Positions 1,441 through 49,997 of a stretch of DNA of 64,000 nucleotides are shown one piece after another. The DNA is from Candidatus Saccharimonadota bacterium (GTDB lineage: Bacteria > Patescibacteriota > Saccharimonadia > Saccharimonadales > Saccharimonadaceae), in the NCBI GenBank assembly GCA_017404795.1, contig JAFRBR010000005.1:129-64128 (forward strand). Reading direction: 5' to 3'. The notes under the pieces were generated by a model. It searched no databases. It was not told where the DNA came from and worked only from the letters and a program-made list of their open reading frames with translations. Each line of letters begins with the position of its first letter. The stretch's first letter is position 1. The translations under genes and the position numbers were made by a program.

Positions 1441-3865
1441 TCTTTTTGGCGGCAACCTTCTTCGTGGTTTTTTTAGCGCTCTTTCTTGTTGTCTTCTTAG
1501 CAGCGGTCTTCTTCCGCCCACCACGCGTACCTCGGCGGGTGGTTTTGGGCTTGTTTTCGAGCATCTCGCGCGCCTTAGCTTCAGTGATTTTCTTAGGGTC
1601 AGTTTCTTTAGGGATTTTGACGTTATTGCGCCGCCCTGGCCCCTTGACATACGGCCCGTAGGCGCCGTTAATAATCATAATCTCGCCCCAGTCGGCGATG
1701 ATCGAATCTACTTTTTTCTGGTATAACGGCAAAGCCTCCTCTAAACTCACAGTATAGGGGTCATGGTCCTTCATTGGAATATTATATTTGCCACCTTTAA
1801 GATACGGCCCAAATGGCCCACTGGCCGCCACCAGCTCCGCTCCATCTGGGGCCTTGCCGAGCACTCTAGGTAGAGCCGGCAACTCTAATTGTTTCAAAGC
1901 CTGCTCCAAAGTCACAGTTTTGACAGATTTCCGCTTTGGCAAAGGCGCAAACCGCGGCTTTTCTCCCGACTCCTTCTCGTTATCGCCGAGTTGGATAAAA
2001 CCGCCGTTCTTTCCGACCTTCGCGTATATTGGCTTGCCATCCTTAGGGTGATGACCGAGTAGCCGCGCATTATTGTACCTCTCTACTCCGTTAGCGACTA
2101 ACACCGTATCCCGAAACGGTCCGTAAAAATCCCGCAGCATCTTGACTCGCTCCAACTTAGCATCTGCAATCAAATCCAAGTCTTTCTCGATATTCGCTGT
2201 AAACTTATAATCCACAATATTCTTAAAATTATCGGTCAAAAACCCCGAGACCAGCTCTCCTATCGGCGTCGGGATCAACTTGCCCTTATTCGCGCCGTAT
2301 TTTTCCTTAACTATTTTGCGTTTTACGGAGGAAGCAACAGCCGGAGCGTGCCCTTCGGGCAGCAGCTCCCAAGCCGCTCTGGCCAAGTCCTCATGTCCCT
2401 TAGGACACATCGCGGCTGTTGCTCCCTCCACTTTCAGCTCAACCACTTCACGTTCTTCCCCTTCGCTCTCGCCCTTAACCACGTATCCCCGCGCCTGAAT
2501 TGCAGACATAATCGAGGCGTAGGTCGACGGTCGGCCAATACCTAGCTCCTCCAATTTCTTCACCAGCGACCCCTCGGTGTATCTAGCCGGTGGCTTAGCA
2601 AAACATTGCCTAGCCACTAATTCTAAGCAATCTACACTGTCGCCCTTTGCCAACTTGGGTAGTTCCGTATCCTTGCTCTTACCATAAACCTTCAAAAACC
2701 CATCGAATATCACCACCTCACCTTTTGCTATAAAAGCCGAAACCTGTTCCTCGGCTTTTATTGTAATGGTAGTTTTGGCGACTCTGGCATTGGCCATTTG
2801 GGTGGCCACAGTCCGCGCCCAGATTAATTGATACAGCCGTTTTTCGTAATTATTCTTCCCCGCCGTAGTTTTAAACACATCGGTTGGCCGGATAGCTTCA
2901 TGGGCCTCTTGGGCACTGGCCGATTTGGTCTTAAAATTGCGTGTTTTTAGATATTTTTCGCCAAATTCTCCCTTGATATAGCCAGAAATCGCCCCTAGTG
3001 CTTGCTTGGACAGGTTCAAAGAGTCAGTTCTGTGATAAGTAATCAACCCCGCCTGATACAGCCCCTGAGCTGCACTCATCGTGGTTCGTGCCGAAAACCC
3101 CAGTTTAGAGTTGGCCTCAATTTGCAGCGCCGCCGTAGTAAATGGCACCGGCGCTGACTTCGCCCCCTCCGCCTCTTCCACTTTTGCCACCACGAACCGC
3201 GCCTGCGCGAGCTCCTCTAGTAATTTCCTAGCAGATTCTTCATCTGTTAAATTACTTTTTTCTAAATTAGCACTAAACTCTGTATCTTTAACAAATCTAC
3301 CACTGATCTTGAAATCTGATTTACTTTCAAACTTCTCAATCTCTTTCTCCCGCTCCACAACGAGTCTTAGCGCCGGCGACTGCACCCGCCCTGCCGAAAT
3401 CGCCCCTGGCACCTTGCGTCGCACCATATCCGACAAATCGTACCCCACCAGCATATCTAGGGTCTGCCTAGCCTGCTGGCTGGAAACCATATCCATATCT
3501 ACCTTGCGCGGGCTCTTAATCGCTTCTTCTAAGGCCGGCTTGGTAATCTCGTGAAAAGTAATCCGCGCGGTGTTTTTGGGTAGCCCCAGCACCTCACACA
3601 GGTGCCAAGAAATCGACTCACCTTCGCGGTCTTCATCCGTCGCTAGCCAGACTTTGTCAGCGGCCTTCGCCGCCTTTTTTAACTCTGAAATAATCTTGGT
3701 ATGTTCTGGGTCTATTTCGTAGGTCACCTCAAAAGTCTCTTTATCTACCTTGGTATCCTTCCGAATATGCCCAATCGAGGCCAAGACCTTATAATCTGAC
3801 CCCAGGTATTTCTCAATCGTCTTCGCTTTTGCCGGGCTCTCCACTATTACCAAATTCTTTGCCAT
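1430..3865 (-). CDS. topA: DNA topoisomerase I with C-terminal Toprim_C repeats and Lys-rich tail; carries a 34-aa in-frame insertion
   Basis: NLVIVESPAKAKTI, ATDEDREGE, SAGRVQS, GLITYHRTDS, AHEAIRPT motifs; start at the ATG 7 nt after TATAAT. Confidence 0.97.
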   Translation of the reverse strand: MAKNLVIVESPAKAKTIEKYLGSDYKVLASIGHIRKDTKVDKETFEVTYEIDPEHTKIISELKKAAKAADKVWLATDEDREGESISWHLCEVLGLPKNTARITFHEITKPALEEAIKSPRKVDMDMVSSQQARQTLDMLVGYDLSDMVRRKVPGAISAGRVQSPALRLVVEREKEIEKFESKSDFKISGRFVKDTEFSANLEKSNLTDEESARKLLEELAQARFVVAKVEEAEGAKSAPVPFTTAALQIEANSKLGFSARTTMSAAQGLYQAGLITYHRTDSLNLSKQALGAISGYIKGEFGEKYLKTRNFKTKSASAQEAHEAIRPTDVFKTTAGKNNYEKRLYQLIWARTVATQMANARVAKTTITIKAEEQVSAFIAKGEVVIFDGFLKVYGKSKDTELPKLAKGDSVDCLELVARQCFAKPPARYTEGSLVKKLEELGIGRPSTYASIMSAIQARGYVVKGESEGEEREVVELKVEGATAAMCPKGHEDLARAAWELLPEGHAPAVASSVKRKIVKEKYGANKGKLIPTPIGELVSGFLTDNFKNIVDYKFTANIEKDLDLIADAKLERVKMLRDFYGPFRDTVLVANGVERYNNARLLGHHPKDGKPIYAKVGKNGGFIQLGDNEKESGEKPRFAPLPKRKSVKTVTLEQALKQLELPALPRVLGKAPDGAELVAASGPFGPYLKGGKYNIPMKDHDPYTVSLEEALPLYQKKVDSIIADWGEIMIINGAYGPYVKGPGRRNNVKIPKETDPKKITEAKAREMLENKPKTTRRGTRGGRKKTAAKKTTRKSAKKTTKKVAAKKTTK
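2327..2429. repeat. In-frame palindromic element in topA
   Basis: Arms GGAGGAAGCAACAGCCG / CGGCTGTTGCTCCCTCC with inner hairpins TGCCC-TTC-GGGCA and TGTCC-CTTA-GGACA; encodes EGATAAMCPK...APAVASS. Confidence 0.85.
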
Positions 3866-3884
3866 ATCACCCATTATATCACAA

Positions 3885-6630: not shown

Positions 6631-8280
6631 CTAGTTTAAGGGGGGCTTAGTCTGCTCGTCCTTTTGCCGCTGGGCGACCATTTTCACCAAGGGGTGCCTC
6701 ACCACTTCATCTTCAATGAAATGGACTTGCGCCACCATCGGATTGTCAAACAGCTGCCTCGAGGCATAGACTAGGCCGTTGTTGTCTCGGTCCAGATAGG
6801 GGGCGTGAATCTGCTCGATGTCACCGGTCAGGATGATTTTACCTTCCATGCCGATTCGCTTAATCAGAGTATCCGCTTGGGCCGCGTTTTGGTCCTGGAA
6901 CTCGTCGTAGATAGCCAACTCATAGGCAAAATCTCGCCCACGGGCATGCTCAATCGGGACGCTCGAGAACCAGTTGTCCCAAATCATATCCACGCGGTCT
7001 TTCAGTTTAGCCTTGATTGAACGTCGAACCGTCTCGCCATTTTGACCATTGCAACAACCGTTGCCATTCTTACCGTTGCCATTGCCATTGCCGTTCTTTT
7101 TGGCGCTACCAGTTCCATACTTCTTTAGATTCGCCAGCTCTTTATTGAGCTTAGAGTCCTCATGCAGTAGGTAATTTCTCAGCGCATTTTTGAGCGGCTG
7201 GATATCCGGATCCATTTTTTCATCCAAATCTCCCGGCAGAGCTCCCAACTTGCTTCGGCTTTCGCACGGCACTGCCGTCACGCCGATAAAGCTCCCATCC
7301 TTGCAAGCCTCATAGCCAAAAATCGTGGCCATGTAAGTCTTGCCCGAGCCAGCCGGCCCAGTGCAAACAACCGCCGCAATATCGGGATCCATCAATGCTT
7401 CGGCGTAGATAGCTTGGCCATCGTTTTCGATACGAGTCGGAAAATCTCCCACATAGCGCAGGGGCAAGATGGCGTCTTCCTTAATGTCGTAGCGCCCGAT
7501 ATGCTCGAAATACGGGTTGTAGGTCGGATCAAACCCTACCGGTAAGTCCTCTAGCTCCGCTACATCCATCACGATGAATTCGTTAGCCACCAAATCTGGC
7601 TCGTTCGGCATCAGCTCTTTGAACCTATCGTGCGGCAAGTATTTGGCACTGTAGAACTCGTGAAACAGCTCCCTCGGCACCTCGATATCACGTCGGCCCG
7701 TATAGGGCTCGGGATACTTGTAGCCATAGCGCATGGTAGCAATCCCGCGTTCGCGCGCTCGGATAGCCAGACCGTTGTCGTTGGTCAGGAGCACCACATT
7801 GTCAAACGAGATATTTTGCACGCTACCCTTCAGTTCACAGCCATTAGTTGGACGGCCCTTTTTAGCTAAACTTGCTGTTAGCGCCGTCAAGATGATTTGT
7901 CCGTCCATGTCGTCGTCAGCCGGATGAAACGGCAGACATTTCCAAAAACTCTCATGCACTGGCAAAATCGAAATCAACTGATTGCTCTCTGGGATTTCAA
8001 TCGGTGCCTGCAAATTATAGACCTCACTCAGAGTATGAAGGCTGTCTTCAGACAAGCCCCTCAGTCGCCTCAGAATCATGCGTGCCGCCCTGCCGCGGTC
8101 AGACTTTTCCCCCTTAAAATTAGACAGCTCACGCACTACAACGGTCGGAATCACGAGGTGTGCCCCGCTCAAATCAATCGTCGGCTCATGCGGCTGCTTT
8201 CCGTCTGCCCCCGGGATGACACCAGGATAATCTACCAAGATATTGGTGTCAATGACGTAGGTAGGTCGATCTTCAGCCAT
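6631..8280 (-). CDS. PIN-domain + PhoH ATPase protein (PhoH2/YlaK type)
   Basis: N-terminal YVIDTNILVD PIN motif, LLTNDNGL, P-loop GPAGSGKT, RGRD, DEFQD, GDIEQI. Confidence 0.9.
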   Translation of the reverse strand: MAEDRPTYVIDTNILVDYPGVIPGADGKQPHEPTIDLSGAHLVIPTVVVRELSNFKGEKSDRGRAARMILRRLRGLSEDSLHTLSEVYNLQAPIEIPESNQLISILPVHESFWKCLPFHPADDDMDGQIILTALTASLAKKGRPTNGCELKGSVQNISFDNVVLLTNDNGLAIRARERGIATMRYGYKYPEPYTGRRDIEVPRELFHEFYSAKYLPHDRFKELMPNEPDLVANEFIVMDVAELEDLPVGFDPTYNPYFEHIGRYDIKEDAILPLRYVGDFPTRIENDGQAIYAEALMDPDIAAVVCTGPAGSGKTYMATIFGYEACKDGSFIGVTAVPCESRSKLGALPGDLDEKMDPDIQPLKNALRNYLLHEDSKLNKELANLKKYGTGSAKKNGNGNGNGKNGNGCCNGQNGETVRRSIKAKLKDRVDMIWDNWFSSVPIEHARGRDFAYELAIYDEFQDQNAAQADTLIKRIGMEGKIILTGDIEQIHAPYLDRDNNGLVYASRQLFDNPMVAQVHFIEDEVVRHPLVKMVAQRQKDEQTKPPLN

Positions 8281-8438: not shown

Positions 8439-9884
8439 TCAATCTTTACCCTTGTCGTTCCGAAAAGAAAACATTACCGGAGTGCCGACCAAGGGATATT
8501 TTTCACGCAATTTTCGCTCCAAAAACCGTTTCCACGACCAATGCAAAAGCCCCAAATCGTGTCCATGGACCACAAACCAAGGCGGGCAAACGTCCGTCTG
8601 CACCATGTATTTAGGTTTCGGGCGAGTGTTTTTGAGCCCAGCCGGCGGATGCGCGGCTACCGCTTCGCTTAAAATCTTGTTTAATTCCGATGTCTTTATC
8701 TCTGTATGGCGGCTTTCATCTATCTCTAGCGCCAACTCAAACAGCCGGGTTACATTTTTCCCTGTCTCAGCGCTAGTAATTAGCACTGGCGCATAAGGCA
8801 AAAAATCAAAATCTCTCTCTAACTCGTCCAAGATTTCATCAGTATCTTCCACCAAATCCGTCTTAGTCAAAACCAATACAACTCCCTTCCCCGCCTCTAC
8901 AATTTGCCCCGCTAGGGACTGGTCCAGCTTGGCGTGTGGTTCAGTACTGTCGACGAGTAGCGCACAGACATCAGATTCCTCAATTGCCGCCAGAGTGCGG
9001 ATAGCGCTAAACTTCTCTATCCCCACTTCTCGTTTGCCAGGCTTACGCAGCCCCGCCGTATCTAAAATCTCCAGCTCTCGTCCCTTGTACTTGACCTGCA
9101 CTCGGTTCACATCTCGAGTTGTCCCTTGTTTAGAGCTCACAATCGCCTGCTGTTTCTTCCCCAGCGAATTAAACAAGCTACTCTTCCCTACATTCGGCCG
9201 CCCAATTAGCGCTAATCTAAGAGGAAGTTTGGCGCGGGTGGTGGGAAATGCCTTTTTCACGGACGTTTCCCGATTTTCGAGCCCCGAGACGTATATTCCT
9301 GACGGCGCCGAGAAAGCTGCCCGAAGGGCAGACTTTCCCGGACGCCCAGTGTATGACGTCGAGGGCGAGAAAGTCGGTCCTGAAAAAGGCATTCCCACCA
9401 GGACCCGCGCCAACGCGCCTTTTAGATCACGAATGCCTTGGCCGGTCGTAGCCGAAGTATAGAAGATCCTTTCGGGGTCAACCCCCAGCGCCCGAAACTC
9501 TGTCACCGGCAACGATTCTTTCAAATCGCACTTATTCAGCACCAAAAACACCGGTTTGTTGGACCGCAACGCATCTTTGGCGATTTTAGCATCTTTATGG
9601 TCAAAATATTTAGTTGAATCTAGCGTCACCAAGATTATATCCGCTACCTCTATCGCATCTGCAATCTGCTCTTGAATCGAAGCCTCAAAATCATCCGTCG
9701 GATCCTTCAGCCCCGCCGTATCAATTAGGACAAACGCGTCGTCAATCGTTGCTACTACATTATCCCGAGTGGTCCCCTCTTCCCGCGCCACAATCGCGAT
9801 ATTTTTGCGGGCCATTCGGTTGAGTAGGCTGGATTTTCCGGCGTTAGTCTGTCCAATCAGTGCTACAATCGGCAGTTTACTCAT
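8439..9884 (-). CDS. der: Ribosome biogenesis GTPase Der (EngA), with a ~60-aa insertion in the GD1-GD2 linker
   Basis: Two GTPase domains (GQTNAGKS/DTAG/NKCD and GRPNVGKS/DTAG/TKTD) and a KH-like C-terminus; leaderless start. Confidence 0.96.
   Translation of the reverse strand: MSKLPIVALIGQTNAGKSSLLNRMARKNIAIVAREEGTTRDNVVATIDDAFVLIDTAGLKDPTDDFEASIQEQIADAIEVADIILVTLDSTKYFDHKDAKIAKDALRSNKPVFLVLNKCDLKESLPVTEFRALGVDPERIFYTSATTGQGIRDLKGALARVLVGMPFSGPTFSPSTSYTGRPGKSALRAAFSAPSGIYVSGLENRETSVKKAFPTTRAKLPLRLALIGRPNVGKSSLFNSLGKKQQAIVSSKQGTTRDVNRVQVKYKGRELEILDTAGLRKPGKREVGIEKFSAIRTLAAIEESDVCALLVDSTEPHAKLDQSLAGQIVEAGKGVVLVLTKTDLVEDTDEILDELERDFDFLPYAPVLITSAETGKNVTRLFELALEIDESRHTEIKTSELNKILSEAVAAHPPAGLKNTRPKPKYMVQTDVCPPWFVVHGHDLGLLHWSWKRFLERKLREKYPLVGTPVMFSFRNDKGKD
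9229..9413. repeat. In-frame palindromic element in der
   Basis: Arms TTGGCGCGGG..TGGTGGGAAATGCCTTTTTCA / TGAAAAAGGCATTCCCACCA..CCCGCGCCAA; inner CTGCCC-GAA-GGGCAG hairpin and CGAGCCCCG core. Confidence 0.88.
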
Positions 9885-23056: not shown

Positions 23057-24271
23057 CTACACCCGCCGAATCCTCTTCCGCGCCGATTCAATTAACTTAG
23101 TTTTTTGATAAATTAGTGGCTTCAAGATCAGATCATGCGCCGGAGTATAGCGGAGCTCTTCACAGCCGAACGAACGCTTGAATTCGGAAACCCCATAGAA
23201 CCGATGGGTCGTCTCCTCCGGCTCCACTATCCCCCACAGATTATAGCGGATGCAGCCTCGCTCCCTAGCCTCCTTCATCGCCGCCATGTGGAGTAGCGGC
23301 GCCGCCGAATACTTTGTCCCCAGCTCCGACGATACTCCGTAATGATAGCTCGCTTCCGGCCCATAAAAAATCATAAAATTCTGCGCCAAAACTTCCCCGT
23401 CCTTCTTCGCAGTGTAGATTAACACCTCTCCGCCCTCGCGGAAGGCTTCAAATTGCTTGCGCAGGAAATCACTCGAAAACGCCACATATTTTTGTCGCTC
23501 AGCGTGCAATTTTTCTAATCGGCAAAATTCGTCAATCGCCTGATCACTAGTCTCGGCCGCAATTTCGATTTCGTTCTTTTCGGCTTTGCGTAGTTTGCGT
23601 CGGAAACCTTGCGACGCTCCGGCCAGAATCTCTTCCTCCGACTTCCGCAAATCCAGTACTCCAGCAAACTCCACCGATAGATACATTGGTGCTCGCTTCA
23701 GGCCTAGCTCCCGCATTAGCGCCAAAGATTTATCTGATAGCTCCAGCTGCGGCCGTACTCGCACAAACACACAGCCAGTCTCTAAACCTTGCGCCTCGAT
23801 ATCGTCAAACACTGCCTTTACCGCCTTATCGTCCTCCCAGTCCATAATCGGCCCACCGGCAATCGCCAAGTATTTGCCCCGCTTAGCCGTTTCCACTACC
23901 CCAGCATACGCCGCCACAATTTTATTATCCTCATCTGTCAGTGCTCTTCGAACTATCTTTTTCCCTCGCGCCTTATGGAACTCGTAAAAATCCCACGACT
24001 GCAAGAAATTCGCCTCAGGATGCGAAGTAATAAACCGGTCCCAAGTAGAACGATTGTCGATATTAGTAAGGCAAAGTGTTTTATCGCAATCGAGGGGATT
24101 TCGGAGCGCGGCAGCGCGAGAGTTAGCGCGCGAGCCCCGTGGCGGACTGCCGGAGGAGTCGAGCGAAGAACGAACTAGTTCGTTCTTCCGAGATGACAAC
24201 TGGCAGACGACATCAGTCGACGGGCGCGAGCGACGCGACCCGAGATGCGATGAAACACTTTGCCTATTCAC
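23057..24271 (-). CDS. FemAB/FemX family peptidyltransferase with a 65-aa N-terminal in-frame insertion
   Basis: FLQSW.F, GGP..DW, FRRKLRKA, YHYG.S, YNLWG, FKRSFG motifs; GTG start overlaps the upstream TGA. Confidence 0.9.
   Translation of the reverse strand: MNRQSVSSHLGSRRSRPSTDVVCQLSSRKNELVRSSLDSSGSPPRGSRANSRAAALRNPLDCDKTLCLTNIDNRSTWDRFITSHPEANFLQSWDFYEFHKARGKKIVRRALTDEDNKIVAAYAGVVETAKRGKYLAIAGGPIMDWEDDKAVKAVFDDIEAQGLETGCVFVRVRPQLELSDKSLALMRELGLKRAPMYLSVEFAGVLDLRKSEEEILAGASQGFRRKLRKAEKNEIEIAAETSDQAIDEFCRLEKLHAERQKYVAFSSDFLRKQFEAFREGGEVLIYTAKKDGEVLAQNFMIFYGPEASYHYGVSSELGTKYSAAPLLHMAAMKEARERGCIRYNLWGIVEPEETTHRFYGVSEFKRSFGCEELRYTPAHDLILKPLIYQKTKLIESARKRIRRV
24070..24264. repeat. In-frame palindromic element (195 nt) in femAB
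   Basis: Arms GGCAAAGTGTTTTATCGCA / TGCGATGAAACACTTTGCC; cores GCGAGCCCCGT and GACGGGCGCGAGCG; inner perfect palindrome GAAGAACGAACTAGTTCGTTCTTC. Confidence 0.9.
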
Positions 24272-25284: not shown

Positions 25285-26491
25285 GTCCCCCCCTAGTATC
25301 TCTTAACAAATATTTCTCAATAATCTTTAGCGCTGGCGCTAAATCCGCCTTGCTGTAATATGTCGGCAAATTGATGATATGCTTCGCCACAAACACCGAA
25401 TTCGGGCAATTCTCCTCTGGGAAGTGGACTTTTTTGTAATATCTCTCGGGTGACACCGGCCGTTCATACCAGAATCCACCAAAATAATACCCTGCCTTCT
25501 GTAATTCTCGCAAAACTTCACCCCTATTCTGCACCAAACAGAACTTCCTCAGAGGCGCCTCACCAGATTTTTTAAACTTTTTAAACTGTTTCAAAGCTAG
25601 CCGGGCCTCAAATTTGCTGATTTTGCGCTCCAAGTCTAATCTGTTGTCTGCTGATTTTTCTACCCAGTGAATCTTGACTAACCCTCGCATCAAAGCGCCC
25701 CCAAGATGTACAGAGGCTAGCCCCCGACAAACCGTCCCAAAAAATGGATAAAATCTCGCCCTCAAGTGGTCTGACAATTTCGGAAGTTTGCTAGGCGCTT
25801 TAATCTCGCGTTTACAGGGGTGGCGTAGTACCACCGCTCCACCAGACACCGTGTCTATTGCTTTGTCCTTACCAAACGAAAACACCGCCGCCGCTCCCAC
25901 CGTCCCCGCCTCGCGTCCATCGGCGTATTTCACCCCTGCCGAATGTGCTAAATCCTCGATTATAGTCAACTCGTGCTTCCTGGCAAAGGCCTCAACTTGC
26001 TTGACATCCACCGGATTCCCTAAACTGTTTTGGATAATAATTCCAGCAATTTTCCGGGCGGGTCCTGCCGGCTCTTTTCCTCCCCAAAAATTTTTACTTC
26101 GTAAAACATTTTTGGGGTTCCCCCCAGAGCCGTCACCCGCCCGTGTGACCTGCAGTAAACTCAAGTCAAAATTCAAATCCTCTCTAGAAACATCCGTCCA
26201 AATAGGAGTAAGCCCCGCGGATTTCACCGCCTCATATACCGCATAACAGGTAAACCCATTCACGATCACCGCGTCCCCAGGCTCAAAATATGCCATCAAG
26301 GCCAAACAGAGGGCCGAGCGTCCATTTTTACACAAAACCACCCTAGTATCCTCTGTCGATTCACCCCCGTACCGTCCCCGCAAATACTTTTTTAGCGCTC
26401 GACAATCACTTTTCCGCCCCATGGCAAAAGTATGTCGCCATACTTCCCCTGTAGAATATCCCGCAGCCATCCCTAGAAAATACCGCTTCAC
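25274..26491 (-). CDS. DegT/DnrJ/EryC1/StrS-like PLP-dependent aminotransferase with a 30-aa insertion
   Basis: NGRSAL, FTC.AV, IIEDLAHSAG, FSFGKDK..D.VSGG, INLPTY. Confidence 0.88.
   Translation of the reverse strand: MKRYFLGMAAGYSTGEVWRHTFAMGRKSDCRALKKYLRGRYGGESTEDTRVVLCKNGRSALCLALMAYFEPGDAVIVNGFTCYAVYEAVKSAGLTPIWTDVSREDLNFDLSLLQVTRAGDGSGGNPKNVLRSKNFWGGKEPAGPARKIAGIIIQNSLGNPVDVKQVEAFARKHELTIIEDLAHSAGVKYADGREAGTVGAAAVFSFGKDKAIDTVSGGAVVLRHPCKREIKAPSKLPKLSDHLRARFYPFFGTVCRGLASVHLGGALMRGLVKIHWVEKSADNRLDLERKISKFEARLALKQFKKFKKSGEAPLRKFCLVQNRGEVLRELQKAGYYFGGFWYERPVSPERYYKKVHFPEENCPNSVFVAKHIINLPTYYSKADLAPALKIIEKYLLRDTRGGREK
26055..26143. repeat. In-frame long hairpin in the aminotransferase gene
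   Basis: CGGGCGGGT/ACCCGCCCG, CGGCTCT/AGAGCCG, CCCCAAAAAT/ATTTTTGGGG, TTTTAC-TTC-GTAAAA nested stems. Confidence 0.8.
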
Positions 26492-28585: not shown

Positions 28586-28774
28586 CAGATTGGTATTTTC
28601 TCCGAGTGAAGCGCGTCTATTGGACGAGCGAAATTCCGAAAAAGGTGAGATGTGTAGTTGTCGTAATTTGCCAATTAAAATCGCACAGATTGCCTTTTGA
28701 GGAATTGAAGCGCGTCTATTGGACGAGCGAAATTCCGAAAAAGGTGAGATGTGCGATTTTAATGGCAAATTTAC
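28586..28774. repeat. Tandem intergenic palindromic elements downstream of rpsJ
   Basis: Identical 48-mer at 28607-28654 and 28706-28753; 25-nt inverted arms at 28663-28687 / 28750-28774. Confidence 0.9.
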
Positions 28775-29100
28775 ATGCGGATTTCGGCGTCTACGCCAGC
28801 CGGGAGGGATAGGTTTTGCAAGCTCTCGATCGTCTTCGGTGTAGCATTAGAGATATCAATCAGCCGTTTATGGACTTTCATTTCAAACGCTTCCCCGCCA
28901 GTCTTATAGACGTGAGGTGACTTAACCACGGTAAAAGTAGACCGCTTGGTCGGCAGAGGAATCGGCCCCGAAACGCTTGCCCCAGTCCGAATTGCCGTGT
29001 CCACAATCTGTCGAGCACTCTGGTCAATTACTCGGTGATCGTAAGCCTTCAGCCGAATCCGAATGGTCAGCCCAGTATCTTTTTCTTTTTTATCTGCCAT
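28771..29100 (-). CDS. rpsJ: 30S ribosomal protein S10
   Basis: [33 protein letters not shown]. Confidence 0.98.
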
Positions 29101-33087: not shown

Positions 33088-33123
33088 CCCGCCCCTGCAG
33101 ACGGACCATGAAAGGAGTGGCCA

Positions 33124-33141: not shown

Positions 33142-33179
33142 CGCTGCAAAAATCGTAAATGAAAGGAGGTGCCCAAACT

Positions 33180-33194
33180 ATGTTTTGGCCTTAG
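33180..33194 (+). CDS. Micro-ORF MFWP*
   Basis: AAAGGAGGT (33162-33170), 9-nt spacer, ATG TTT TGG CCT TAG. Confidence 0.5.
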   Translation: MFWP

Positions 33195-33234
33195 CTCACG
33201 CGGGTAACGCCCGCGCCCCATACAACTGAATATT

Positions 33235-33330
33235 GGAAAAACACCCGAGGTCGGCGCCCTGCGCCCCGCCTCGGCGGTACCCCGAGGTCGGCTTGCGCAC
33301 TCTAGCGCCCCTTACCCTCGGGGTTTTTCT
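33235..33330. repeat. 97-nt structured repeat, copy B
   Basis: Homologous to 18718-18814, with the stems preserved. Confidence 0.9.
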
Positions 33331-33417
33331 TACCTCAAAAAACAAAAGAAACCCCCCGGTCGATTGACCGGGGGTGCTTGAGCCACCCAAGAGAGTCCAT
33401 AAAGGCTCAAAGAGGTT

Positions 33418-33717
33418 TTACCAAGGGGTACCGTCATGCTTCAGCATCGGGATTTCCTCGTACTTCCCAGAGGTGGTGTTGTGCTTATTGCGGAAGTTGC
33501 CTTTCGCAAAGTACCACCCCTCTGGGTAATAGAGAGTTTCCGGGTCGGCATCGGTGATAATTATCCCCGCTGCGGGCAGCGACATTTGGTTAAACGGATG
33601 ATATCGCATGTACTCAACTTCCATCGGGTTGAGTGCAGCAAACAGGTTGGCCGCCAAGCTAGCAGCCAGGTCAGCCGTTTTCACCGTAAGTTGGTTAGAT
33701 TTGGATTTCTTACCCAT
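33418..33717 (-). CDS. Hypothetical protein
   Basis: GAGGT SD; 99 aa; no recognised motif. Confidence 0.6.
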   Translation of the reverse strand: MGKKSKSNQLTVKTADLAASLAANLFAALNPMEVEYMRYHPFNQMSLPAAGIIITDADPETLYYPEGWYFAKGNFRNKHNTTSGKYEEIPMLKHDGTPW

Positions 33718-33756
33718 AATTCTTACCTCTTTCTCTAGGTGCGGTTTGGGTTTAGC

Positions 33757-36791: not shown

Positions 36792-38306
36792 TTATGACAA
36801 CTTTTCCCGCAAAATTTCTTGCACGGCGCTAGGGTTGGCTTTGCCTTTGGATTCTTTCATCACTTGTCCGACCAAAAAGCCAATCACTTTTTCTTCTCCA
36901 GCCTTAAAATCTGCCTGGGCTTTTTGAGTTTCCGGCTTGGCCAGTACTGCATCTACGATTTTTTCCAAGGCTCCGAGGTCGTTTTCCTGAATCACGCCCA
37001 GCTCCTTTGCAATCTGCCGTGCTCCATGTCCCTTCATCTGCGGACCAAATAATCTCAAGAAGACTTCCTTCGTCGCCGTAGAGGATAACTCCTTTTTCTC
37101 ATTCATCTCCGCCAACTCATTCAAATCCTTCGCGCTTGGCAAGTCGTTCAAATATTCTGCCGACTTCTCCTCCGCTAATAACACAGAGGTAAATAAGTTG
37201 GCAATTAAGACCAATCGAGAACACACTTTCCGGGACCTTTCGGAGGTTACGACCGAGAATGAGCGCGCCTCGCCCGTGACGACGGGCCGAGGCGACGCGT
37301 GTCCCGGAAAGTCGTGTTCCGATTGGTCCATTTCGTTTAGTTTGTTCATTAGCTCGGGGTAATCAAGCAATATTTCCAAAATATCGGCCTTAATTGTATC
37401 TTTAAACTTGACCCGGTAATCAGAAGGCATCAATGGTAATTTAGCTGATTCAGTTTTAATAAACTCAGCCGATAGATTAATCGGCGGCAGGTCTGGTTCT
37501 GGCATATAGCGATAATCTTTAGCCTCTTCCTTTGAGCGTTGTCCAGTAGTCTTGCCATCCGCATCACTCCACCCCCGTGTTTCCTGCACCACTTTTTTGC
37601 CAGACTCCAAAACTCGCGTTTGCCGCTTAATTTCATACTCTACTGCTCTTTCCACACTTCTAAACGAATTCAAATTCTTCACTTCCGCCCGCGTGCCCAA
37701 CTCAGACGAGCCCTCCGGTGCTAGCGAAATATTCACGTCAAACCGCATGTTGCCGTTGTAGAGATCCCCATAAGTCACTCCCGCAAATCGCATCAAGCGC
37801 CACAATTCTTTACAGTAATCGTGCGCGTCCTTGGCCGAATGAATATCCGGCATCGAGACAATTTCGATTAGCGGCGTATCTACCCGATTCAAGTCCACCA
37901 AAGAATAATCCGAGAAATGAGTCAATTTCCCCGCGTCGCCCTCTAGATGCGCGTGTTCGATCCGAATCTTTGTGCCCGACGGCAATTCCACATACCCCTC
38001 GCCAATAATCGGCGCATAGAATTGGGTAATCTGGTAGCCCTTCGGTGAATCCGGATAAAAATAATGTTTGCGGTCAAACCTGCTAAAAGCGTTAATTTTG
38101 CAATTCATCGCTCGCCCCGCCCGAATTGCATACCGAATCGCCTCGCCGTTTAAGCGCGGCAACATCCCCGGCAGAGCATAATCCACCGGCGACACACACG
38201 AATTTGGCTCTTTACCCCGCGCGTCATTATCTACCTCCGAAAACAATTTGGTCTTCGTACATAGTTGTACATGACACTCAATCCCAATCGTCGGCACATA
38301 TTTCAT
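36792..38306 (-). CDS. gatB: Asp-tRNA(Asn)/Glu-tRNA(Gln) amidotransferase subunit B with a 40-aa insertion
   Basis: IGIECHVQL.TKTKLF, DRKHYFYPD, HLEGDAGK, YRYMPEPDLP, GQVMK..KGKANP. Confidence 0.97.
   Translation of the reverse strand: MKYVPTIGIECHVQLCTKTKLFSEVDNDARGKEPNSCVSPVDYALPGMLPRLNGEAIRYAIRAGRAMNCKINAFSRFDRKHYFYPDSPKGYQITQFYAPIIGEGYVELPSGTKIRIEHAHLEGDAGKLTHFSDYSLVDLNRVDTPLIEIVSMPDIHSAKDAHDYCKELWRLMRFAGVTYGDLYNGNMRFDVNISLAPEGSSELGTRAEVKNLNSFRSVERAVEYEIKRQTRVLESGKKVVQETRGWSDADGKTTGQRSKEEAKDYRYMPEPDLPPINLSAEFIKTESAKLPLMPSDYRVKFKDTIKADILEILLDYPELMNKLNEMDQSEHDFPGHASPRPVVTGEARSFSVVTSERSRKVCSRLVLIANLFTSVLLAEEKSAEYLNDLPSAKDLNELAEMNEKKELSSTATKEVFLRLFGPQMKGHGARQIAKELGVIQENDLGALEKIVDAVLAKPETQKAQADFKAGEEKVIGFLVGQVMKESKGKANPSAVQEILREKLS
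37209..37328. repeat. In-frame palindromic element (120 nt) in gatB
   Basis: Arms GACCAATCG..AACAC.ACTTTCCGGGAC / GTCCCGGAAAGTCGTGTTCCGATTGGTC; core CCCGTGACGACGGG. Confidence 0.9.
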
Positions 38307-38364
38307 AATTTGCTCCTTCCGCGCTTCACCGTTAAATAGGCTCGTATGGCTTTGTTTTTTAGTC

Positions 38365-38784
38365 TCATATTGCTCCTAAATCTTTTAAGGCTTGTTTATA
38401 AACCGCCAATGCATTCGACGCCTGCTTATAACTAATCTCAAAACCCGACTCATGCGCAATGGCATTACGCAGTTTATGTACTCGCCACACCGCATTCAAA
38501 TGTTCAAATTTGTCCCCGCGTCGCTTCAGTCTATCACCCATAGTTTTGCCCGGCACGCCCATTTCTACCATTGCTTTGTCCAATAATTTGTCTGCCTCAA
38601 TAATCACCACTGTCCAAGTCGCCGGACTGTCTTGGTTTAGTTTATTTTCAATAGCTAAAAATCTAGTCTGATATAACTCCTTATTAAAAGTATATCCGCG
38701 CTTACCTGTCAGCAAAATCGCCACAAAGATAAACACTGCCACAATCAAAACAGCGATAATAAAAGTCACCACTCCGCCATCCAT
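38365..38784 (-). CDS. Single-TM hypothetical protein between gatA and gatB
   Basis: N-terminal TM, EADKLLD..M...G..GKTMGDRLK, HKLRNAIAHE. Confidence 0.8.
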   Translation of the reverse strand: MDGGVVTFIIAVLIVAVFIFVAILLTGKRGYTFNKELYQTRFLAIENKLNQDSPATWTVVIIEADKLLDKAMVEMGVPGKTMGDRLKRRGDKFEHLNAVWRVHKLRNAIAHESGFEISYKQASNALAVYKQALKDLGAI

Positions 38785-38805
38785 CACATTTCACCCCTGT
38801 TAAAC

Positions 38806-38834
38806 TTGACATTTGTAGTCATCTGTGATATAAT
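38806..38834 (+). promoter_or_regulatory. Consensus sigma70 promoter pointing antisense into the 3' end of gatA
   Basis: TTGACA 38806-38811, 17-nt spacer, TG-A-TATAAT 38826-38834. Confidence 0.6.
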
Positions 38835-38841
38835 GGTAGTA

Positions 38842-40320
38842 TTAGTCATCTTCTTGTAACTCCTTGCTAAACTCTATTAAGCTCTTGTCGCTTCGTCGTG
38901 GCCCCACTAATTGTAAACCAATTGGTAGGCCAGTTTTGGTTTTACCCGCTGGAATCGTCAGTCCTGGTACCCCCGCCAAATTCAAGGGCACGCTCATCAC
39001 ATCCTCTAGATACATCGCCACCGGATCGTTTACCTTTTCACCCAGTTTAAAAGCCGGGTTTGGTGCCACAGGTGTCAAAATATAATCACACTGTTTAAAC
39101 GCCTTTTCGTATTCCTTAACAATCAAAGTCCGAGCTTTGGCCGCTTTCAGGAAATAAGCATCATAGAACCCGCTTGACAGCACAAAATTCCCAATCATAA
39201 TCCGTCGCTTGTTTTCGGGCATAAAACCCTCGTCCCGCGTATTGGAATAAAGCGCGTCCAAATCTTCCGAATTTTCTGACCGAAATCCATATCGCACCCC
39301 GTCGTAGCGCGACAGATTCGAAGCCACCTCCGCCGGCACAATAATATAATATGCTGCCAGGGCATATTTTAATGCCGGCATTTCGAGCTCCACGATTTCA
39401 TGACCTTTAGACTTCAGTAGTTCGCATTTATGTTTCAATGCGTTCCGAATTTCCTTATCTACGCTATCATTATCAAATTCCTTAATAATTCCTATTCGAA
39501 CGCAAGAATCAGACGCTTCGTTCGCCTCCTCGCTCGCGCCCGTCGTCACGGGGCTCGCTTCGTCGATTGCTCCCGTTGTCGCAAACGCTCTCGAATCGTC
39601 CGATTCTGCGTTCGAACTTACGTTATAGTAATCATCAAGAGTAGTCAGATCCTTCGGATCACGACCGCTCGCAACTGACATTAGTAAATCCATATCCTCT
39701 GGTGTCTTAGTAAAGAAGCCAATGCAATCAGTGGAGGAAGCCATCGCCACCACGCCATATCGCGAAACACATCCATAAGTAGGCTTCAGGCCATATACGC
39801 CGTTAAACGAAGCCGGTTGCCGAATCGAACCACCCGTATCAGTGCCAGTCGCAAACTCGACAATATCTAGCGCCACCGCCACCGCCGAGCCGCCAGACGA
39901 CCCTCCAGCCACTCGCTCGCGGTCATAGGCATTCAAAGTCGGTCCAAAATACGAATTTTCCGTCGATGACCCGTGAGCAAAAGCATCAAGATTGGTCCGC
40001 CCAATCATAATTGCTCCCTCATCTTCCAATTTTTTCACCGCCGTAGCCGTAATCGGCGCCGTAAACCCTTGTAAAATATGAGCCGAAGCAGTCGTCTCGC
40101 CCTCTGGCGAAAGAAAATTGTCCTTCAAAGCATACGGCACACCCGCCAGGCGTCCAACCTTTTCACCGCGGGCAATCCGGGCATCAATCTCTCGTGCTCG
40201 CTTCAAGGCTCCCTCCTCATTTAAATACGTAAAAATGTTATAATCTGCAAAATGTTTCGCCTTTGCCAGGGCGTCCTTCACTAATCTCTCGGCGGTGACT
40301 TTCTTGTTAGCTATTTTCAT
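38842..40320 (-). CDS. gatA: Amidotransferase subunit A with a ~41-aa insertion
   Basis: ALKDNF, GGSSGGSA, GTDTGGSIRQPAS amidase signature. Confidence 0.97.
   Translation of the reverse strand: MKIANKKVTAERLVKDALAKAKHFADYNIFTYLNEEGALKRAREIDARIARGEKVGRLAGVPYALKDNFLSPEGETTASAHILQGFTAPITATAVKKLEDEGAIMIGRTNLDAFAHGSSTENSYFGPTLNAYDRERVAGGSSGGSAVAVALDIVEFATGTDTGGSIRQPASFNGVYGLKPTYGCVSRYGVVAMASSTDCIGFFTKTPEDMDLLMSVASGRDPKDLTTLDDYYNVSSNAESDDSRAFATTGAIDEASPVTTGASEEANEASDSCVRIGIIKEFDNDSVDKEIRNALKHKCELLKSKGHEIVELEMPALKYALAAYYIIVPAEVASNLSRYDGVRYGFRSENSEDLDALYSNTRDEGFMPENKRRIMIGNFVLSSGFYDAYFLKAAKARTLIVKEYEKAFKQCDYILTPVAPNPAFKLGEKVNDPVAMYLEDVMSVPLNLAGVPGLTIPAGKTKTGLPIGLQLVGPRRSDKSLIEFSKELQEDD
39495..39616. 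repeat. In-frame palindromic element in gatA
   Basis: Arms TTCGAACGCAAGAATCAGACG / CGTCCGATTCTGCGTTCGAA; core CGCTCGCGCCCGTCGTCACGGGGCTCGCT. Confidence 0.9.
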
Positions 40321-47890: not shown

Positions 47891-47900
47891 TCTATCACCA

Positions 47901-49997
47901 TTATATCATAATCGCTTTGATTTTTTCAATTTCGTCTCGGAGTAAAGCCGCTCGCTCAAACTCTAGATTCGCTGCAGCCAGTTGCATCTCGGAAGACAGT
48001 TGTTTCACTAGCGCCGGCAACTCATCCTTGGGTATTTTCTTAATGTCTAGTTTATCCACCTTTTCTTTCTCTGGAATAATCGCGCGAAGGCCCTTTGATA
48101 CTTCCTTTTTGATCGAATGCGGCGTAATTCCGTGTTTTTCATTGTATTCTTTCTGAATCTCGCGCCGGCGGTTGGTCTCACTAATCGCCCTTTCCATACT
48201 TTCGGTGATATAATCAGCATACATAATCACTTTGCCTTCTTCATGTCGCGCCGCCCGGCCAATCGTCTGAATCAATGCCGACTCTGAGCGTAAAAACCCT
48301 TCCTTGTCCGCGTCCAATATTGCGACTAATGATACTTCTGGTAAATCCAGTCCTTCACGCAGCAGATTAATCCCTACTAGCACATCATATACCCCTTCAC
48401 GCAAGTCACGCAGAATATCGCCCCGCTCCAAAGTATCAATATCCGAGTGAATATACGCTGTTTTTACTCCCCGCTCTTTCAAGTGATCTGAGAGGTCTTC
48501 CGCCATCCGTTTGGTCAGGGTGGTGATCAAAGTCCGCTGTCCCTTAGCGATGCGTCGGTCAATTTCCTCCATCAAATCATCAATCTGTCCTTCCGAGGGC
48601 CTTACTTCTATTTCGGGGTCCAGTAGCCCCGTTGGGCGAATCACTTGCTCCGCTGGCTCAGGCGAATGTTCTAGCTCGTATTCCCCTGGTGTAGCCGATA
48701 CATAAATCGCTTGGTTGATATGCCCTTGAAACTCACCGTAAGTTAATGGCCGGTTATCTAGCGCGCTCGGCAGCCGGAACCCGTATTCCACGAGATTCAA
48801 CTTCCGCGCGTGGTCGCCATTATACATTCCCCGTACCTGCGGCAGGGTCATATGCGATTCATCTACAATCAGCAGCCAGTCCCTCGGGAAGAAATCTAGC
48901 AGAGTCGCCGGTGGCTGCCCTGGGGCTCTCCCGTCTAAGTGCCTTGAATAATTCTCAATCCCCTTTACGAACCCCGTTTCTTTTAACATTTCTAGATCAT
49001 ATTTTGTGCGCTGGCTTAATCTTTGTGCCTCTAGATATTTTTGGTGCTTTTCGAAATATTTTAACCGCTCTTCGAACTCCGCTCGTATCGTCACGAGAGC
49101 CCTCTCCAGTTGCGACTGCGGTGTGGCATAATGCGTGTTCGGGAATAAATGCACATGGTCCGGATTCTCCCGCACTTCAAAAGTCAACGGGTCCACAATC
49201 TTCACCTCTTCCAGCGTATCAAATCCAAACTCAAACCGATACGCATATTCCCCATTAGCCGGATATAAATCAATCGTATCCCCCATCACCCGAAAATTCC
49301 CTCGTTCAAACGCCAGATCATTCCGATGATACTGCATATTGACGAGGTGTCGGATAAACTCTAATTGCGATAGGCTAGCAACAGATCGGTCTTTTTCGGA
49401 AACGCTTCGCTCGCGCCCGTCGTTACGGGGCTCGCTCGCTCTAATTGCTCCCGTCGTTGCTCTAACCTCCTCAAAAGACCGATCTGCTGCTACCCCCCAG
49501 CCTTCTACACTTTTCCATAACGGTAACGACATCTCGGTATAATTCTCCGGCGAGCCAATACCATAGATACAAGAAACGCTCGCAACTACGATCACATCCC
49601 GCCTCGTGAGTAGCGCCTCGGTCGCTCCATGCCGAAGCCGATCAATTTCATCATTAATCGCCGAGTCCTTCTCGATATAAGTATCGGTCGAGGCAATATA
49701 GGCTTCTGGCTGGTAATAGTCGAAATAACTCACAAAATAATGCACTTCGTTGTCCGGAAAAAACTCTCGAAATTCCGAATATAATTGTGCCGCCAAGGTC
49801 TTATTGTGCGCCAAAATCAAAGTCGGACGCTGAGTCTGCTCAATGATATTAGCCATGGTAAAAGTCTTACCCGACCCAGTTACCCCTAGTAAGGTCTGTT
49901 CGTGGACACCACGATTAATGCCGTCCACCAACTGCTTGATTGCGGCCGGTTGATCGCCCATCGGGGAATATTTTGACACTAACTTAAATTTAGCCAT
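47901..49997 (-). CDS. uvrB: Excinuclease ABC subunit B with a ~40-aa insertion
   Basis: [34 protein letters not shown]. Confidence 0.98.
49376..49492. repeat. In-frame palindromic element (117 nt) in uvrB
   Basis: Arms TAGCAACAGATCGGTCTTTT / AAAAGACCGATCTGCTGCTA; core CGCTCGCGCCCGTCGTTACGGGGCTCGCT. Confidence 0.9.

Follow-up and report, generated by a model that had tools for sequence, protein, structure and literature searches.

Palindromic elements with a structured core inside protein-coding genes of gut Saccharibacteria

Palindromes in seven genes

The window, by which we mean the whole 64,000-nt stretch of DNA analysed here, belongs to a Saccharibacteria genome from the ruminant gut and carries palindromic elements inside essential genes (Table 1). 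A preliminary description had listed seven genes with in-frame palindromic insertions, and all seven were confirmed as long, imperfect palindromes by their folds, with gene identities assigned by Pfam and ORFs that stay open across the insert with no stops. The stems are strong, ranging from -58 to -124 kcal/mol. In UvrB, GatA and Der the insert segments are extra in comparison with PDB homologues, and inserts are also extra relative to empty orthologues.

Table 1. Palindromic elements of the window. The z-scores compare RNAfold energies with 100 mononucleotide shuffles per element, which do not preserve dinucleotides.
Element	Position	Strand	Length (nt)	Details	z
topA palindrome	2327..2429	-	103	TopA residues ~483-516	-7.1
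der/engA composite palindrome	9215..9427	-	213, including outer arms	residues ~175-246	-13
femAB palindrome	24069..24265	-	197	N-terminal; residues 3-68	-5.8
DegT-like palindrome	26055..26143	-	89	'family 2'
Intergenic hairpin (eighth element)	28661..28776	+		junction CTTTTGAGG...CCGAAAAAG of the core family
gatB element	37209..37328	+	120	residues 327-366	-8.9
gatA element	39496..39615	-	120	core sense; hairpin 2 at 39531-39558	-5.4
uvrB element	49373..49495	-	123	core sense; residues ~168-209; hairpin 2 at 49408-49435	-6.9

Regarding their positions, the der element lies in the linker separating the two GTPase domains, the gatB element in the linker from GatB_N to GatB_Yqey, and the uvrB element directly N-terminal of the UvrB_inter domain. 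The der palindrome, previously given as 185 nt, grows to the length in Table 1 when its outer arms are counted, and on either side its outermost arm bases belong to native codons (D-L-K-G and P-L-R-L). The femAB palindrome comes directly after a GTG start codon at 24271. When compared to empty orthologues, the gatB and gatA elements add 102 and 99 nt, respectively.

The gatA and uvrB elements carry an exact 28-nt core, which gatB has in inverted form and which a nested palindrome splits in femAB. The sequence GCGAGCCCCGTRACGACGGGCGCGAGCG has 2 exact matches in the window (gatA and uvrB) vs 0 expected, and CCCGTNNNNACGGG has 3 (gatB, gatA and uvrB) vs 0.02 expected. We scored the elements with a covariance model trained on 48 copies outside the window, and obtained 90 bits for uvrB, 87 for gatA, 61 for gatB on the strand opposite the gene, and 31 for femAB, also on the opposite strand and with an interrupted core. 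The gatB copy, which is antisense to its gene, belongs to core subfamily B. The femAB copy is a core-family element in antisense orientation, with a nested palindrome of ~88 nt placed exactly in the loop of hairpin 2. The single family proposed earlier stands for gatA, uvrB, gatB and femAB, while topA, der and the DegT-like gene carry other palindromic families, with at least three to four distinct families present. The split core also claimed for der found no support in the sequence search, and der presents nested-palindrome anatomy only. Similarly, the GCCCTTCGGGC said to be common to topA and der does match twice (vs 0.05 expected), and it hints only faintly at kinship because it is an 11-mer tetraloop hairpin.

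Among these other families, the inner sequence of the topA palindrome was found again at loci L072 and L095. The DegT-like element has conserved termini (CGGGTGACG...GGCAGGACCCG) and a variable inner stem, with relatives at L072, L116, L092, L018, L024, L057 and L059. As for the intergenic hairpin, its centre is only 24 nt and its arms, of ~30 bp, are AT-rich, which makes it a mini or core-less relative, with 16.7 bits (E 0.05) in the covariance model. Rfam gave no match on the elements at the gathering threshold and none at E up to 10 over 37100-39700, which leaves self-cleaving ribozymes, self-splicing introns and other known structured RNAs without a covariance-model match. Nor did we find in the literature any description of such elements in Saccharibacteria, as the preliminary description had supposed.

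Anatomy of the core and its arms

Only a core of about 80 nt is common to the copies of the main family, and the hairpin stem around it differs at each site. This core has a length mode of 78-81 nt, is GC-rich and T-poor, and runs from TYGAG to CGARAA. Its two ends meet in a short helix that closes the fold and includes a tandem G·A loop, and inside it are two hairpins with ACG-containing loops, the whole having two tandem G·A motifs. Hairpin 1 varies in sequence with the subfamily, with ACG invariant in the loop. Hairpin 2, in which the second tandem G·A lies, is almost invariant (GCCCCGU-(A/G)ACG-ACGGGCGC), and its lower stems covary. A one-base bulge falls mostly in the 5' arm (56 vs 19). 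Besides, G·T mismatches exceed A·C on the core's own strand, both in sense copies (63 vs 38) and in antisense copies (29 vs 14).

The arms measure 17-48 bp, are unique to each copy and sit at variable linker positions of the host protein. All 15 arm pairs examined have changes on both sides, and the arm covariation score was 0.569 vs 0.177 in shuffles, of which 0/500 reached it, with slid controls at 0.12-0.19. Information at arm positions is 0-0.5 bit. Among paralogues the outer 9 nt are near random (mostly shared in 0.33% of pairs vs 0.10% by chance), and the inner 12 nt are shared ~18-fold above the null. Within one genome, identical cores occur between unrelated arms (L117 and L020). Hence the long inverted arms noted at the outset are present, although they are copy-specific and not conserved terminal repeats.

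The arms overlap native coding sequence. Net insertions are 81-105 nt vs palindromes of 115-135 nt, except at one site, whose net insertion of 153 nt is longer than its palindrome. In three orthologues the outer arms of der are native codons on both sides, each with its own sequence, and the R-I/V-G codons of GatA fall within arms. The comparison with orthologues, which had been suggested as a way to define target-site duplications, showed no direct repeat flanking the inspected palindromes; their flanks are inverted instead.

Copies, alleles and re-used sites

The expectation of many copies was borne out. GTDB genomes contain the exact core in at least 119 places, nearly all in animal-gut Saccharibacteria/Nanosyncoccus MAGs. 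In four metagenomes, word depth spikes precisely where the gatB and gatA elements lie, and the flanks there are many and varied. Long ORFs contain 102 of 116 copies (88%), 72 in sense and 30 in antisense orientation, in five reading frames. Sense copies use frames 0 and 2 only, and never frame 1, which has TAA/TGA in the hairpin-2 loop. Depending on the frame, the core is translated as EPRNDG, SPVTTG, PVVTG or RRHG, among others; the peptides first read in the window (PVTTG in GatA, PRNDG in UvrB and PVVTG in GatB) were verified. This occupancy agrees with the earlier proposal that selection acts on DNA or RNA rather than on the peptide. Open frames are no more frequent in the cores than in shuffled cores, and we see no sign of special coding adaptation beyond the T-poor composition.

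Metatranscriptome contigs hold core, arms and flanks together, at contig level and with DNA contamination possible, and we saw no skip joints in these RNA-derived contigs. As the femAB copy comes right behind the start codon and no alternative start exists, it would have to be translated. Judging from the reading frames, the elements are probably translated through as low-complexity peptide.

Empty alleles were found for gatB, gatA, uvrB and der. About 45 of 79 gatB orthologues are empty, GatA orthologues mostly so, and naive Der alleles exist; most close homologues have a filled uvrB site. In a strain 97% identical to the window (L200) the uvrB insert is absent. Given this strain and the empty gatB orthologues, the inserts are real polymorphisms. 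Beside the uvrB site, this strain has ~20 mismatches per 60 nt vs ~2 per 60 nt elsewhere, and the filled/empty difference is an allelic recombination tract, not a transposition. This was the sole close filled/empty pair, and no de novo insertion was caught at strain level. Several 'empty' alleles have longer linkers (L158, L136 and L204) and may be scars, which makes the pre-insertion state uncertain at several sites. Another objection raised at the outset, that orthologues might share the same insert with a conserved peptide, did not hold in the orthologue comparison.

Insertion sites are few and re-used. Across lineages the gatB site holds at least four families or orientations and the uvrB site at least four families, and the gatA and der sites likewise hold different families or orientations. 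One protein of ~1000 aa carries three element sites. Two loci, L205 and L201, have a common outer arm, ACT(A/G)GCATCAGA, with different cores inside. In 851 kb of neighbourhoods picked solely by GatB similarity, 10/10 model matches were at the gatA or gatB sites, and the length differences of these site segments are always multiples of 3. Orthologous copies (L031/L076/L096 and L021/L041) show compensatory changes in the arms and hairpin 1, which could reflect selection on the hairpin at the host level and not pure selfishness.

Known elements and the origin of the inserts

The closest likeness is to the Rickettsia palindromic elements (RPE; Ogata et al. 2000 Science 290:347; Ogata et al. 2002 Genome Res 12:808; as cited in PMC10969869). 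Both are short palindromic repeats (~100-150 nt) with no coding capacity of their own, occur in bacteria that have reduced genomes and depend on a host, lie in frame within unrelated housekeeping genes at permissive protein positions where they are apparently tolerated, and form several families per genome. In-frame, stop-free repeats in unrelated conserved genes, which define RPE, were found in 7/7 window genes and at the other intragenic copies. According to PMC10969869, RPE families encode a conserved peptide; here, in contrast, copies of one core occur in five frames and both orientations and no conserved element-encoded peptide was found. Further, only the ~80-nt centre is conserved here and the stem is copy-specific and at host-linker positions, a probable difference from RPE as regards the arms, and one site is re-used by different families. 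The host phylum also differs (Saccharibacteria, not Rickettsiales), and no sequence kinship emerged from Rfam or other matches; the two are set apart on these features.

Bacterial MITEs (among them Correia/NEMIS, ERIC, RUP, BOX and Nezha) are likewise small, non-autonomous, hairpin-forming and multi-copy, and can be co-transcribed with adjacent genes. MITEs are recognised by conserved terminal inverted repeats that match those of a parent IS, and they usually have direct target-site duplications and an overwhelmingly intergenic distribution. In the core family, in contrast, the termini are the least conserved part, most copies are intragenic and no direct duplication is visible at the inspected palindromes; the DegT-type family 2 does show conserved termini. 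We found no parent IS with matching ends in the scanned window ORFs (see below), and no copy split around a gene in ~1.8 Mb of loci. With REP/REPIN sequences, which RAYT (Y1 HUH) transposases mobilise, and IS200/IS605-derived palindromes, the elements share a putative recognition by DNA hairpin shape, a preferred strand and bulged or mismatched bases as landmarks, and by analogy a single-strand-DNA chemistry is plausible. REPINs have conserved arms and variable loops and are extragenic; here the arms vary, the core is conserved, 88% of copies are intragenic, and no RAYT was seen in a non-exhaustive search.

Other elements target hairpins, such as group IIC introns at terminators and the elements that use integron attC sites. 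Each comes with an enzyme of its own, encoded by the element or by its partner, and is either of kilobase size or associated with cassettes. attC sites have conserved R''/R' boxes (RYYYAAC...GTTRRRY) at their ends and lie outside genes, 3' of cassettes, with IntI nearby. IS1397/ISKpn1 and IS110-family elements are reported to insert into REP loops (PMC1525189). The elements described here resemble all of these in their apparent insertion at a palindrome that already exists, in its centre or at its apex (femAB nesting and core swapping), and attC in a conserved structure (extrahelical base and internal loop) with free stem sequence. Unlike attC, they have no end consensus and are intragenic, with no integrase among the scanned ORFs. 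Mobile GC-rich palindromes that invade coding genes of an AT-richer, reduced genome are reportedly also known from yeast mitochondria, as GC-rich palindromic clusters and 'byp' translational-bypass elements (Lang et al. 2014 PNAS). Byp elements break the reading frame, and the ribosome hops across them; here, in contrast, frames stay open and lengths differ by multiples of 3.

Regarding a mobilising enzyme, the window has 54 ORFs of 150 aa or more, and the 18 of these that were scanned with Pfam hold housekeeping or unassigned proteins only, with no transposase, other mobilising gene or integrase among them. No autonomous copy, with split halves around a gene, was found in the ~1.8 Mb of loci, and no RAYT or TnpA gene was seen in the window or loci in the non-exhaustive search.

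One could argue that the inserts are assembly artefacts or chimeric MAG sequence, as such repeats break short-read contigs at the core (the X1 contigs stop at 39545 and resume at 39561). This doubt, already voiced in the preliminary description, is effectively refuted: a Logan contig assembled independently runs through the gatB element with 0 mismatches, the identical 503-aa Der protein is recorded in 2 contigs and 10 member sequences, hundreds of independent assemblies (ENA, NCBI, JGI and Logan) contain homologous filled alleles, and reading frames are always preserved. It is very improbable that the inserts are intervening sequences kept out of the protein, either cut out of the mRNA in the manner of rRNA intervening sequences and bulge-helix-bulge introns or passed over by the ribosome like byp. 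Against this stand the long frame, open in 7/7 window copies and 102/116 others, the stop-bearing core frame that is never used, the multiples of 3 at gatA and gatB, the absence of any Rfam ribozyme or intron family match at E up to 10, and the retention of core, arms and flanks in RNA-derived contigs, even if the stem base juxtaposes the two gene flanks, the stems are strong, and rRNA insertions are known in lineages related to Saccharibacteria.

Two further explanations are both unlikely, the first by a shade less than the second. Inserts could come from templated repair or replication template switching with no dedicated machinery: a stalled or broken 3' end would copy a core at another locus via short conserved junction motifs, snap back and copy its own flank, with cores later homogenised by gene conversion. 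This fits arms that are host-derived and unique, the short junctions with a T-run and an A-run (possible microhomology), core swaps inside persistent arms, identical same-genome cores with unrelated arms, active inter-allele recombination and the missing transposase. However, the anatomy (length mode, 5'-arm bulge and invariant loop bases) is too regular for sloppy repair, several unrelated palindromic families share the lifestyle, and inner arms are partly inherited among paralogues. Alternatively, the host could maintain the hairpins for a function at the RNA or DNA level, with spread being secondary; for example, they might serve RNase III or mRNA decay, make ribosomes pause at domain boundaries and so help folding, or bind a nucleoid or replication protein. 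Orthologues without the insert nonetheless work (in GatB, GatA, Der and the uvrB of the 97%-identical strain), antisense copies make up 30% of the intragenic ones, the excess of G·T over A·C tracks the element strand and not the mRNA, families are interchangeable at a single site, and copies look spread over permissive sites rather than over a functional gene set. These points weigh against the compensatory evolution in arms and hairpins, the core conserved between species with neutral sites expected to be saturated, the inter-domain positions, the mostly filled uvrB site, and two ACG loops with two tandem G·A that resemble a protein-binding platform.

We therefore favour, as the likely explanation, a new superfamily of non-autonomous, selfish, intragenic structured DNA elements, RPE-like and architecturally distinct, comprising several related families, specific to animal-gut Saccharibacteria and resident in protein-coding genes. 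The RPE-like selfish repeats first suggested are supported in that the insertions are in frame, read in several frames and both orientations, and polymorphic. Such elements would be tolerated because they occupy variable loops or inter-domain linkers, preserve the frame, contain no stop and yield low-complexity peptide on translation. For the main family, the core would be the transferable unit and the moving part, with hairpin centres as its target; the outer stem would not be carried from site to site but made locally from the host's variable linker, perhaps by template-switch (quasi-palindrome) conversion or snap-back copying, the linker turning palindromic as far as the first constrained codon on each side. 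A structure-recognising enzyme, probably single-strand-DNA-specific and encoded elsewhere, may drive the process. New cores and nested palindromes would arise at the centre of existing hairpins and, with occupied sites re-used, cores would turn over within persisting outer arms. Filled and empty alleles are also exchanged among strains via homologous recombination.

Palindromic inserts and a core shared by some of them

The window is densely packed with housekeeping genes, most of them encoded on the minus strand, and Pfam identified topA, der, two femAB paralogues, a DegT-type aminotransferase, EF-Tu, EF-G, gatB, gatA, murJ, a class A PBP, uvrB and aminoacyl-tRNA synthetases. Close protein homologues carry the name Candidatus Saccharibacteria. 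Sequence that matches the window exactly is present in four gut-metagenome runs from one study, and bovine and sheep gut runs contain more distant relatives.

The preliminary description had reported a palindromic insertion in each of seven genes, and we found one in all of them, with the host ORFs uninterrupted across the seven segments and minimum free energies 5 to 13 standard deviations under mononucleotide-shuffled sequence. Insert positions in the proteins were taken from Pfam and PDB alignments; TopA and DegT gave no PDB homologue at strict search thresholds.

GC-rich, long, imperfect palindromes within genes of the window, with the residues that are extra against solved homologues and the number of residues in whose place these stand
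Gene	Window coordinates	Residues in protein	Residues replaced
topA	2327-2429		
der	9215-9427	189-241	6
femAB	24069-24265		
DegT	26055-26143		
gatB	37209-37328		
gatA	39496-39615	228-271	16
uvrB	49373-49495	161-212	9

Seven palindromes do not amount to the single family that had been proposed, since those of topA, der and DegT, while genuine palindromic insertions, belong to other families, and the 11-mer that topA and der do have in common is weak evidence of relatedness. Regarding the remaining genes, the 28-nt core attributed to gatA and uvrB is exact in both (0 expected), its partial counterpart in gatB is present inverted and slightly different, and the halves of the split femAB core lie on either side of a nested palindrome. 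The peptides read from it (PVTTG in GatA, PRNDG in UvrB and PVVTG in GatB) were also correct. A candidate DegT element at the GC peak 25850-25960 was discarded as non-palindromic (z +2.4) in favor of the tabulated one, and covariance-model matches at 54023, 29185 and 56978 were weak and not convincing as hairpins.

Because a tandem G·A loop and a multiloop interrupt the stem, palindrome-boundary heuristics are unreliable, and element boundaries were set by anchoring on junction motifs. The aligned copies have a common centre of ~78-81 nt (the core), limited by TYGAG and CGARAA, and outside it an outer stem of 17-48 bp, whose two strands we call arms. Within the core, a short closing helix adjoins a symmetric G·A/G·A loop. 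Hairpin 1 occurs in several subfamily versions with compensatory stems, always with ACG in the loop. Hairpin 2 has a lower stem that covaries, another tandem G·A and the invariant upper stem GCCCCGU-(A/G)ACG-ACGGGCGC. All 15 stem pairs examined showed changes on both sides, and the stem covariation score was 0.569, vs 0.177 for shuffles (0 of 500 reached 0.569) and 0.12-0.19 for slid registers. One base, in most cases G or A, is bulged out, with a preference for the 5' arm (56 vs 19). G·T oppositions outnumbered A·C on the core's own strand in both sense (63:38) and antisense copies (29:14), a modest signal suggesting that what matters is folding of the element's own strand and not of the host mRNA. 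No Rfam family matched the elements at the gathering threshold, nor the stretch 37100-39700 at E up to 10; a hammerhead-like reading of YGAG...CGARA was rejected given this result and the absence of the invariant C3, U4, G5 and A6 bases.

Scanning GTDB species representatives with a 20-nt core pattern matched at least 119 stretches. Among the matches listed, almost all came from Saccharibacteria/Nanosyncoccus MAGs, whose sources were goats, sheep, cattle, buffalo, deer and the like. The core is a specific marker of animal-gut Saccharibacteria. Matches in a Clostridia (L023), a Spirochaetes (L047) and one further non-Saccharibacteria locus (L104) were set aside, as they have no arms and look like chance in GC-rich DNA. 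In four metagenomes, contigs stack at the precise positions of the gatB and gatA elements, from where they enter many different flanks. Also among the matches listed, 102 of 116 non-redundant copies (88%) lay in a reading frame that stays open for at least 150 nt to either side, 72 in sense and 30 in antisense orientation; we estimate that the coding density of such small genomes would predict about this share. The core frame with TAA/TGA was unused in every listed copy, and copies are read in many frames, so selection acts on frame and stops and not on any one peptide. The number of open frames per core showed no excess over shuffled cores. Hence the T-poor composition (T = 10%) explains them sufficiently, and we rejected the idea of cores 'designed' to be stop-free.

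Core words were present in many ruminant metatranscriptome runs, whose contigs join core, arms and unrelated flanks, with no skip joints reported in them. This contig evidence fits retention of the elements in mRNA, with DNA carry-over as a possible contributor. The femAB copy directly follows the sole usable start codon, so the protein could not be made without translating the element, which is thus predicted to be translated.

Proposed local formation of arms, and re-used sites

Arm positions hold almost no information. In one 8-kb locus (L117), three copies have identical cores and unrelated arms. Between paralogues, the outer 9 nt of the arms are near-random, with most of them shared in 0.33% of pairs vs 0.10% by chance, and the inner 12 nt are shared at ~18 times the chance level. 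We surveyed the gatB and gatA sites in 80 metagenome loci picked by GatB similarity, an unbiased sample of gatB neighbourhoods, and found empty sites among them. Empty gatB segments measured 93 nt and filled ones 177-198 nt, with 63 and 144-162 nt for gatA, all length differences being multiples of three. The palindromes themselves (115-135 nt) exceed the net gains of 81-105 nt, and the R-I/V-G codons of gatA sit within the right arm. At der, naive (empty) alleles have a 14-residue linker flanked by two Leu-Lys pairs. The palindrome of the L111 orthologue spans from Leu-Lys (CTTAAG) to Leu-Lys with a net addition of only 87 nt, and that of the window runs from D-L-K-G in the last helix of GTPase domain 1 to P-L-R-L in the first strand of domain 2; in each of three orthologues, the stem ends are its own native codons.

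The simplest reading of these alignments is that the arms are made locally and not carried between sites. An ~80-nt core would enter a variable linker, and the linker on both sides of it would be turned palindromic out to the first constrained codons, either during insertion, by snap-back copying, or after it, by template-switch 'quasi-palindrome' conversion or selection for pairing. A version in which the native flank forms one arm and a copy of it the other was refined at der, where comparison with naive alleles limits the native part to the outermost codons of both sides and shows the arms in the linker's place. Support for a native left arm at gatA from L136 was likewise weakened, as this locus and L158 look like scars of older elements. 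Separately, a 15-nt direct repeat, AAAAGGTGAGATGTG, lies at 28640-28654 and 28741-28755 of the window, one copy 8 nt upstream of an intergenic mini-element (28661-28776, plus strand; a core-less or short-centred relative) and the other within its right arm; it might be a trace of arm formation.

The same sites are re-used with different elements. Lineages differ in what occupies the gatB site, which may be subfamily B (seen in both orientations), an A-type core, an element of the femAB type or one of a fourth family, and re-use was likewise seen at gatA, uvrB, der and three sites in a ~1000-residue protein. A covariance model run over 851 kb of gatB neighbourhoods detected ten copies, all ten at gatA or gatB sites. 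At uvrB, locus L205 (A-type, sense) and locus L201 (B-type, antisense) have the same outer arm, ACT(A/G)GCATCAGA, and different cores, so the centre was exchanged within a persisting stem. In femAB, the apical loop of hairpin 2 is the exact location of a second palindrome, and the der element is a comparable nest. Taken together, re-use, exchange and nesting suggest that hairpin centres are preferred targets, though strong filtering for permissive sites would yield a similar pattern.

Nesting is not confined to femAB and der: L006 (~1130-1260, minus strand) and long alleles of the L033/P0053 type carry more nested or duplicated hairpins in hairpin 1 or next to the core. In the alignment of Der homologues (A3), columns 420-458 (P0140, P0126, P0122 and P0170) form a second insertion hotspot in GTPase domain 2, with element-like peptides such as ...ARARLHGAHSLRSG...; it is empty in the window.

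Allelic variation and proposed mobility

Locus L200 is 97% identical to the window across 5 kb, and its uvrB site is naive, with 54 nt vs 183 nt in the window, so filled and empty alleles are both viable within one species. Over ~60 nt on each side of the site we counted ~20 mismatches per 60 nt, vs ~2 per 60 nt elsewhere. Judged from this alignment, the difference is an allelic replacement via homologous recombination and not a transposition. Since the L200 flank (LGAPEHYLE...KVSKYNAM) is the odd one among homologues, the comparison suggests that the insert was lost from L200 by import of an empty allele. The divergent tract, a mark of inter-strain recombination, covers 49300-49560 of the window.

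Intermediate uvrB alleles of 661-674 aa (P0022/P0093 from L204, P0059 and P0032) keep PLW(R/K)xxxGW and have no core. Arm-like residues are sometimes retained, and these alleles are probably deleted-element scars or pre-insertion states; several 'empty' alleles may be scars. When filled/empty pairs were sought by all-against-all blastn at 85% identity or more, the sole result was an unrelated in-frame indel, and no de novo insertion was caught in the alleles compared. This 219-nt indel is AT-rich and non-palindromic, and its presence or absence distinguishes contigs, ~95% identical to one another, within another Saccharibacteria clade (L185-L194, ~7500-7720, vs L196/L192). An assembly artefact was ruled out by an independent contig over the gatB element with 0 mismatches and by a Der protein identical to that of the window, insert included, recorded from other contigs.

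Literature searches gave no description of such elements in Saccharibacteria or Patescibacteria. They do not pass the tests that define MITEs, REPINs, integron attC sites, bypass elements and known ribozymes or introns. Their counterpart in lifestyle is the Rickettsia palindromic element (RPE; reviewed in PMC10969869), from which they differ in being read in many frames, in conserving the centre and not the ends, in having stems at host-linker positions, in the re-use of sites with core turnover and in the host phylum. No mobilising enzyme was found with Pfam on 18 of the 54 window ORFs of at least 150 aa, nor split copies in ~1.8 Mb of loci, and there is a substantial chance that the mobility mechanism itself is new. 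Tentatively, and as a rather unlikely possibility, the core could be a new kind of mobile cassette, recognised by shape alone, that inserts at the apex or centre of a DNA hairpin and makes the host flank its stem, after which the element would be the landing pad of the next core. Recognition would depend on the bulge, the tandem G·A motifs and the two loops with ACG on one DNA strand, every new site would supply the terminal repeats out of its host gene, and a putative enzyme of Saccharibacteria, a naturally transformable group, would drive the process. If true, its mobility logic would differ from that of MITEs, REPINs, RPEs as now described and integron cassettes.

To our knowledge, in-frame 'protein-coding palindromes' have so far been held to be a Rickettsia peculiarity. 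Such a system, and a richer one, in an ultra-small episymbiont lineage unrelated to Rickettsia shows that the phenomenon recurs in reduced genomes, and its sampling is far better than in Rickettsia, with hundreds of metagenomic alleles per site that include filled, empty, swapped and nested states. Long-standing questions, namely how the elements move, why essential proteins tolerate them and whether they seed new peptide segments, become directly testable, and host-derived stems provide a natural experiment in intragenic palindrome formation. For candidate-phyla phylogeny and annotation, the inserts lengthen and diversify the marker proteins UvrB, GatA/B, Der and TopA, and short-read assemblies break at the core.

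Other features of the window

A third palindromic repeat of ~95 nt and up to 80% GC (GAAAAACCCCGAGG...CTTCGGGTGTTTTTC) is found at 18711-18810 and 33225-33330, both copies lying between ORFs and looking like bidirectional, terminator-like REP elements. The gap at 32741-33756 gave no ORF of at least 150 aa and no Rfam match. A SAM riboswitch (RF00162, 61 bits) at 22050-22146 on the minus strand extends into mechanical ORF 21089-22114 at its 5' end; the true start of this gene is therefore probably further downstream. Just past tRNA-Leu (62557-62647), and within the mechanical ORF 62517-63986, a perfect 18-bp hairpin (GGCGAAAATAGGCTCGCG/CGCGAGCCCATTTTCGCC) at 62717-62762 has CGCGAGCC in common with the core.
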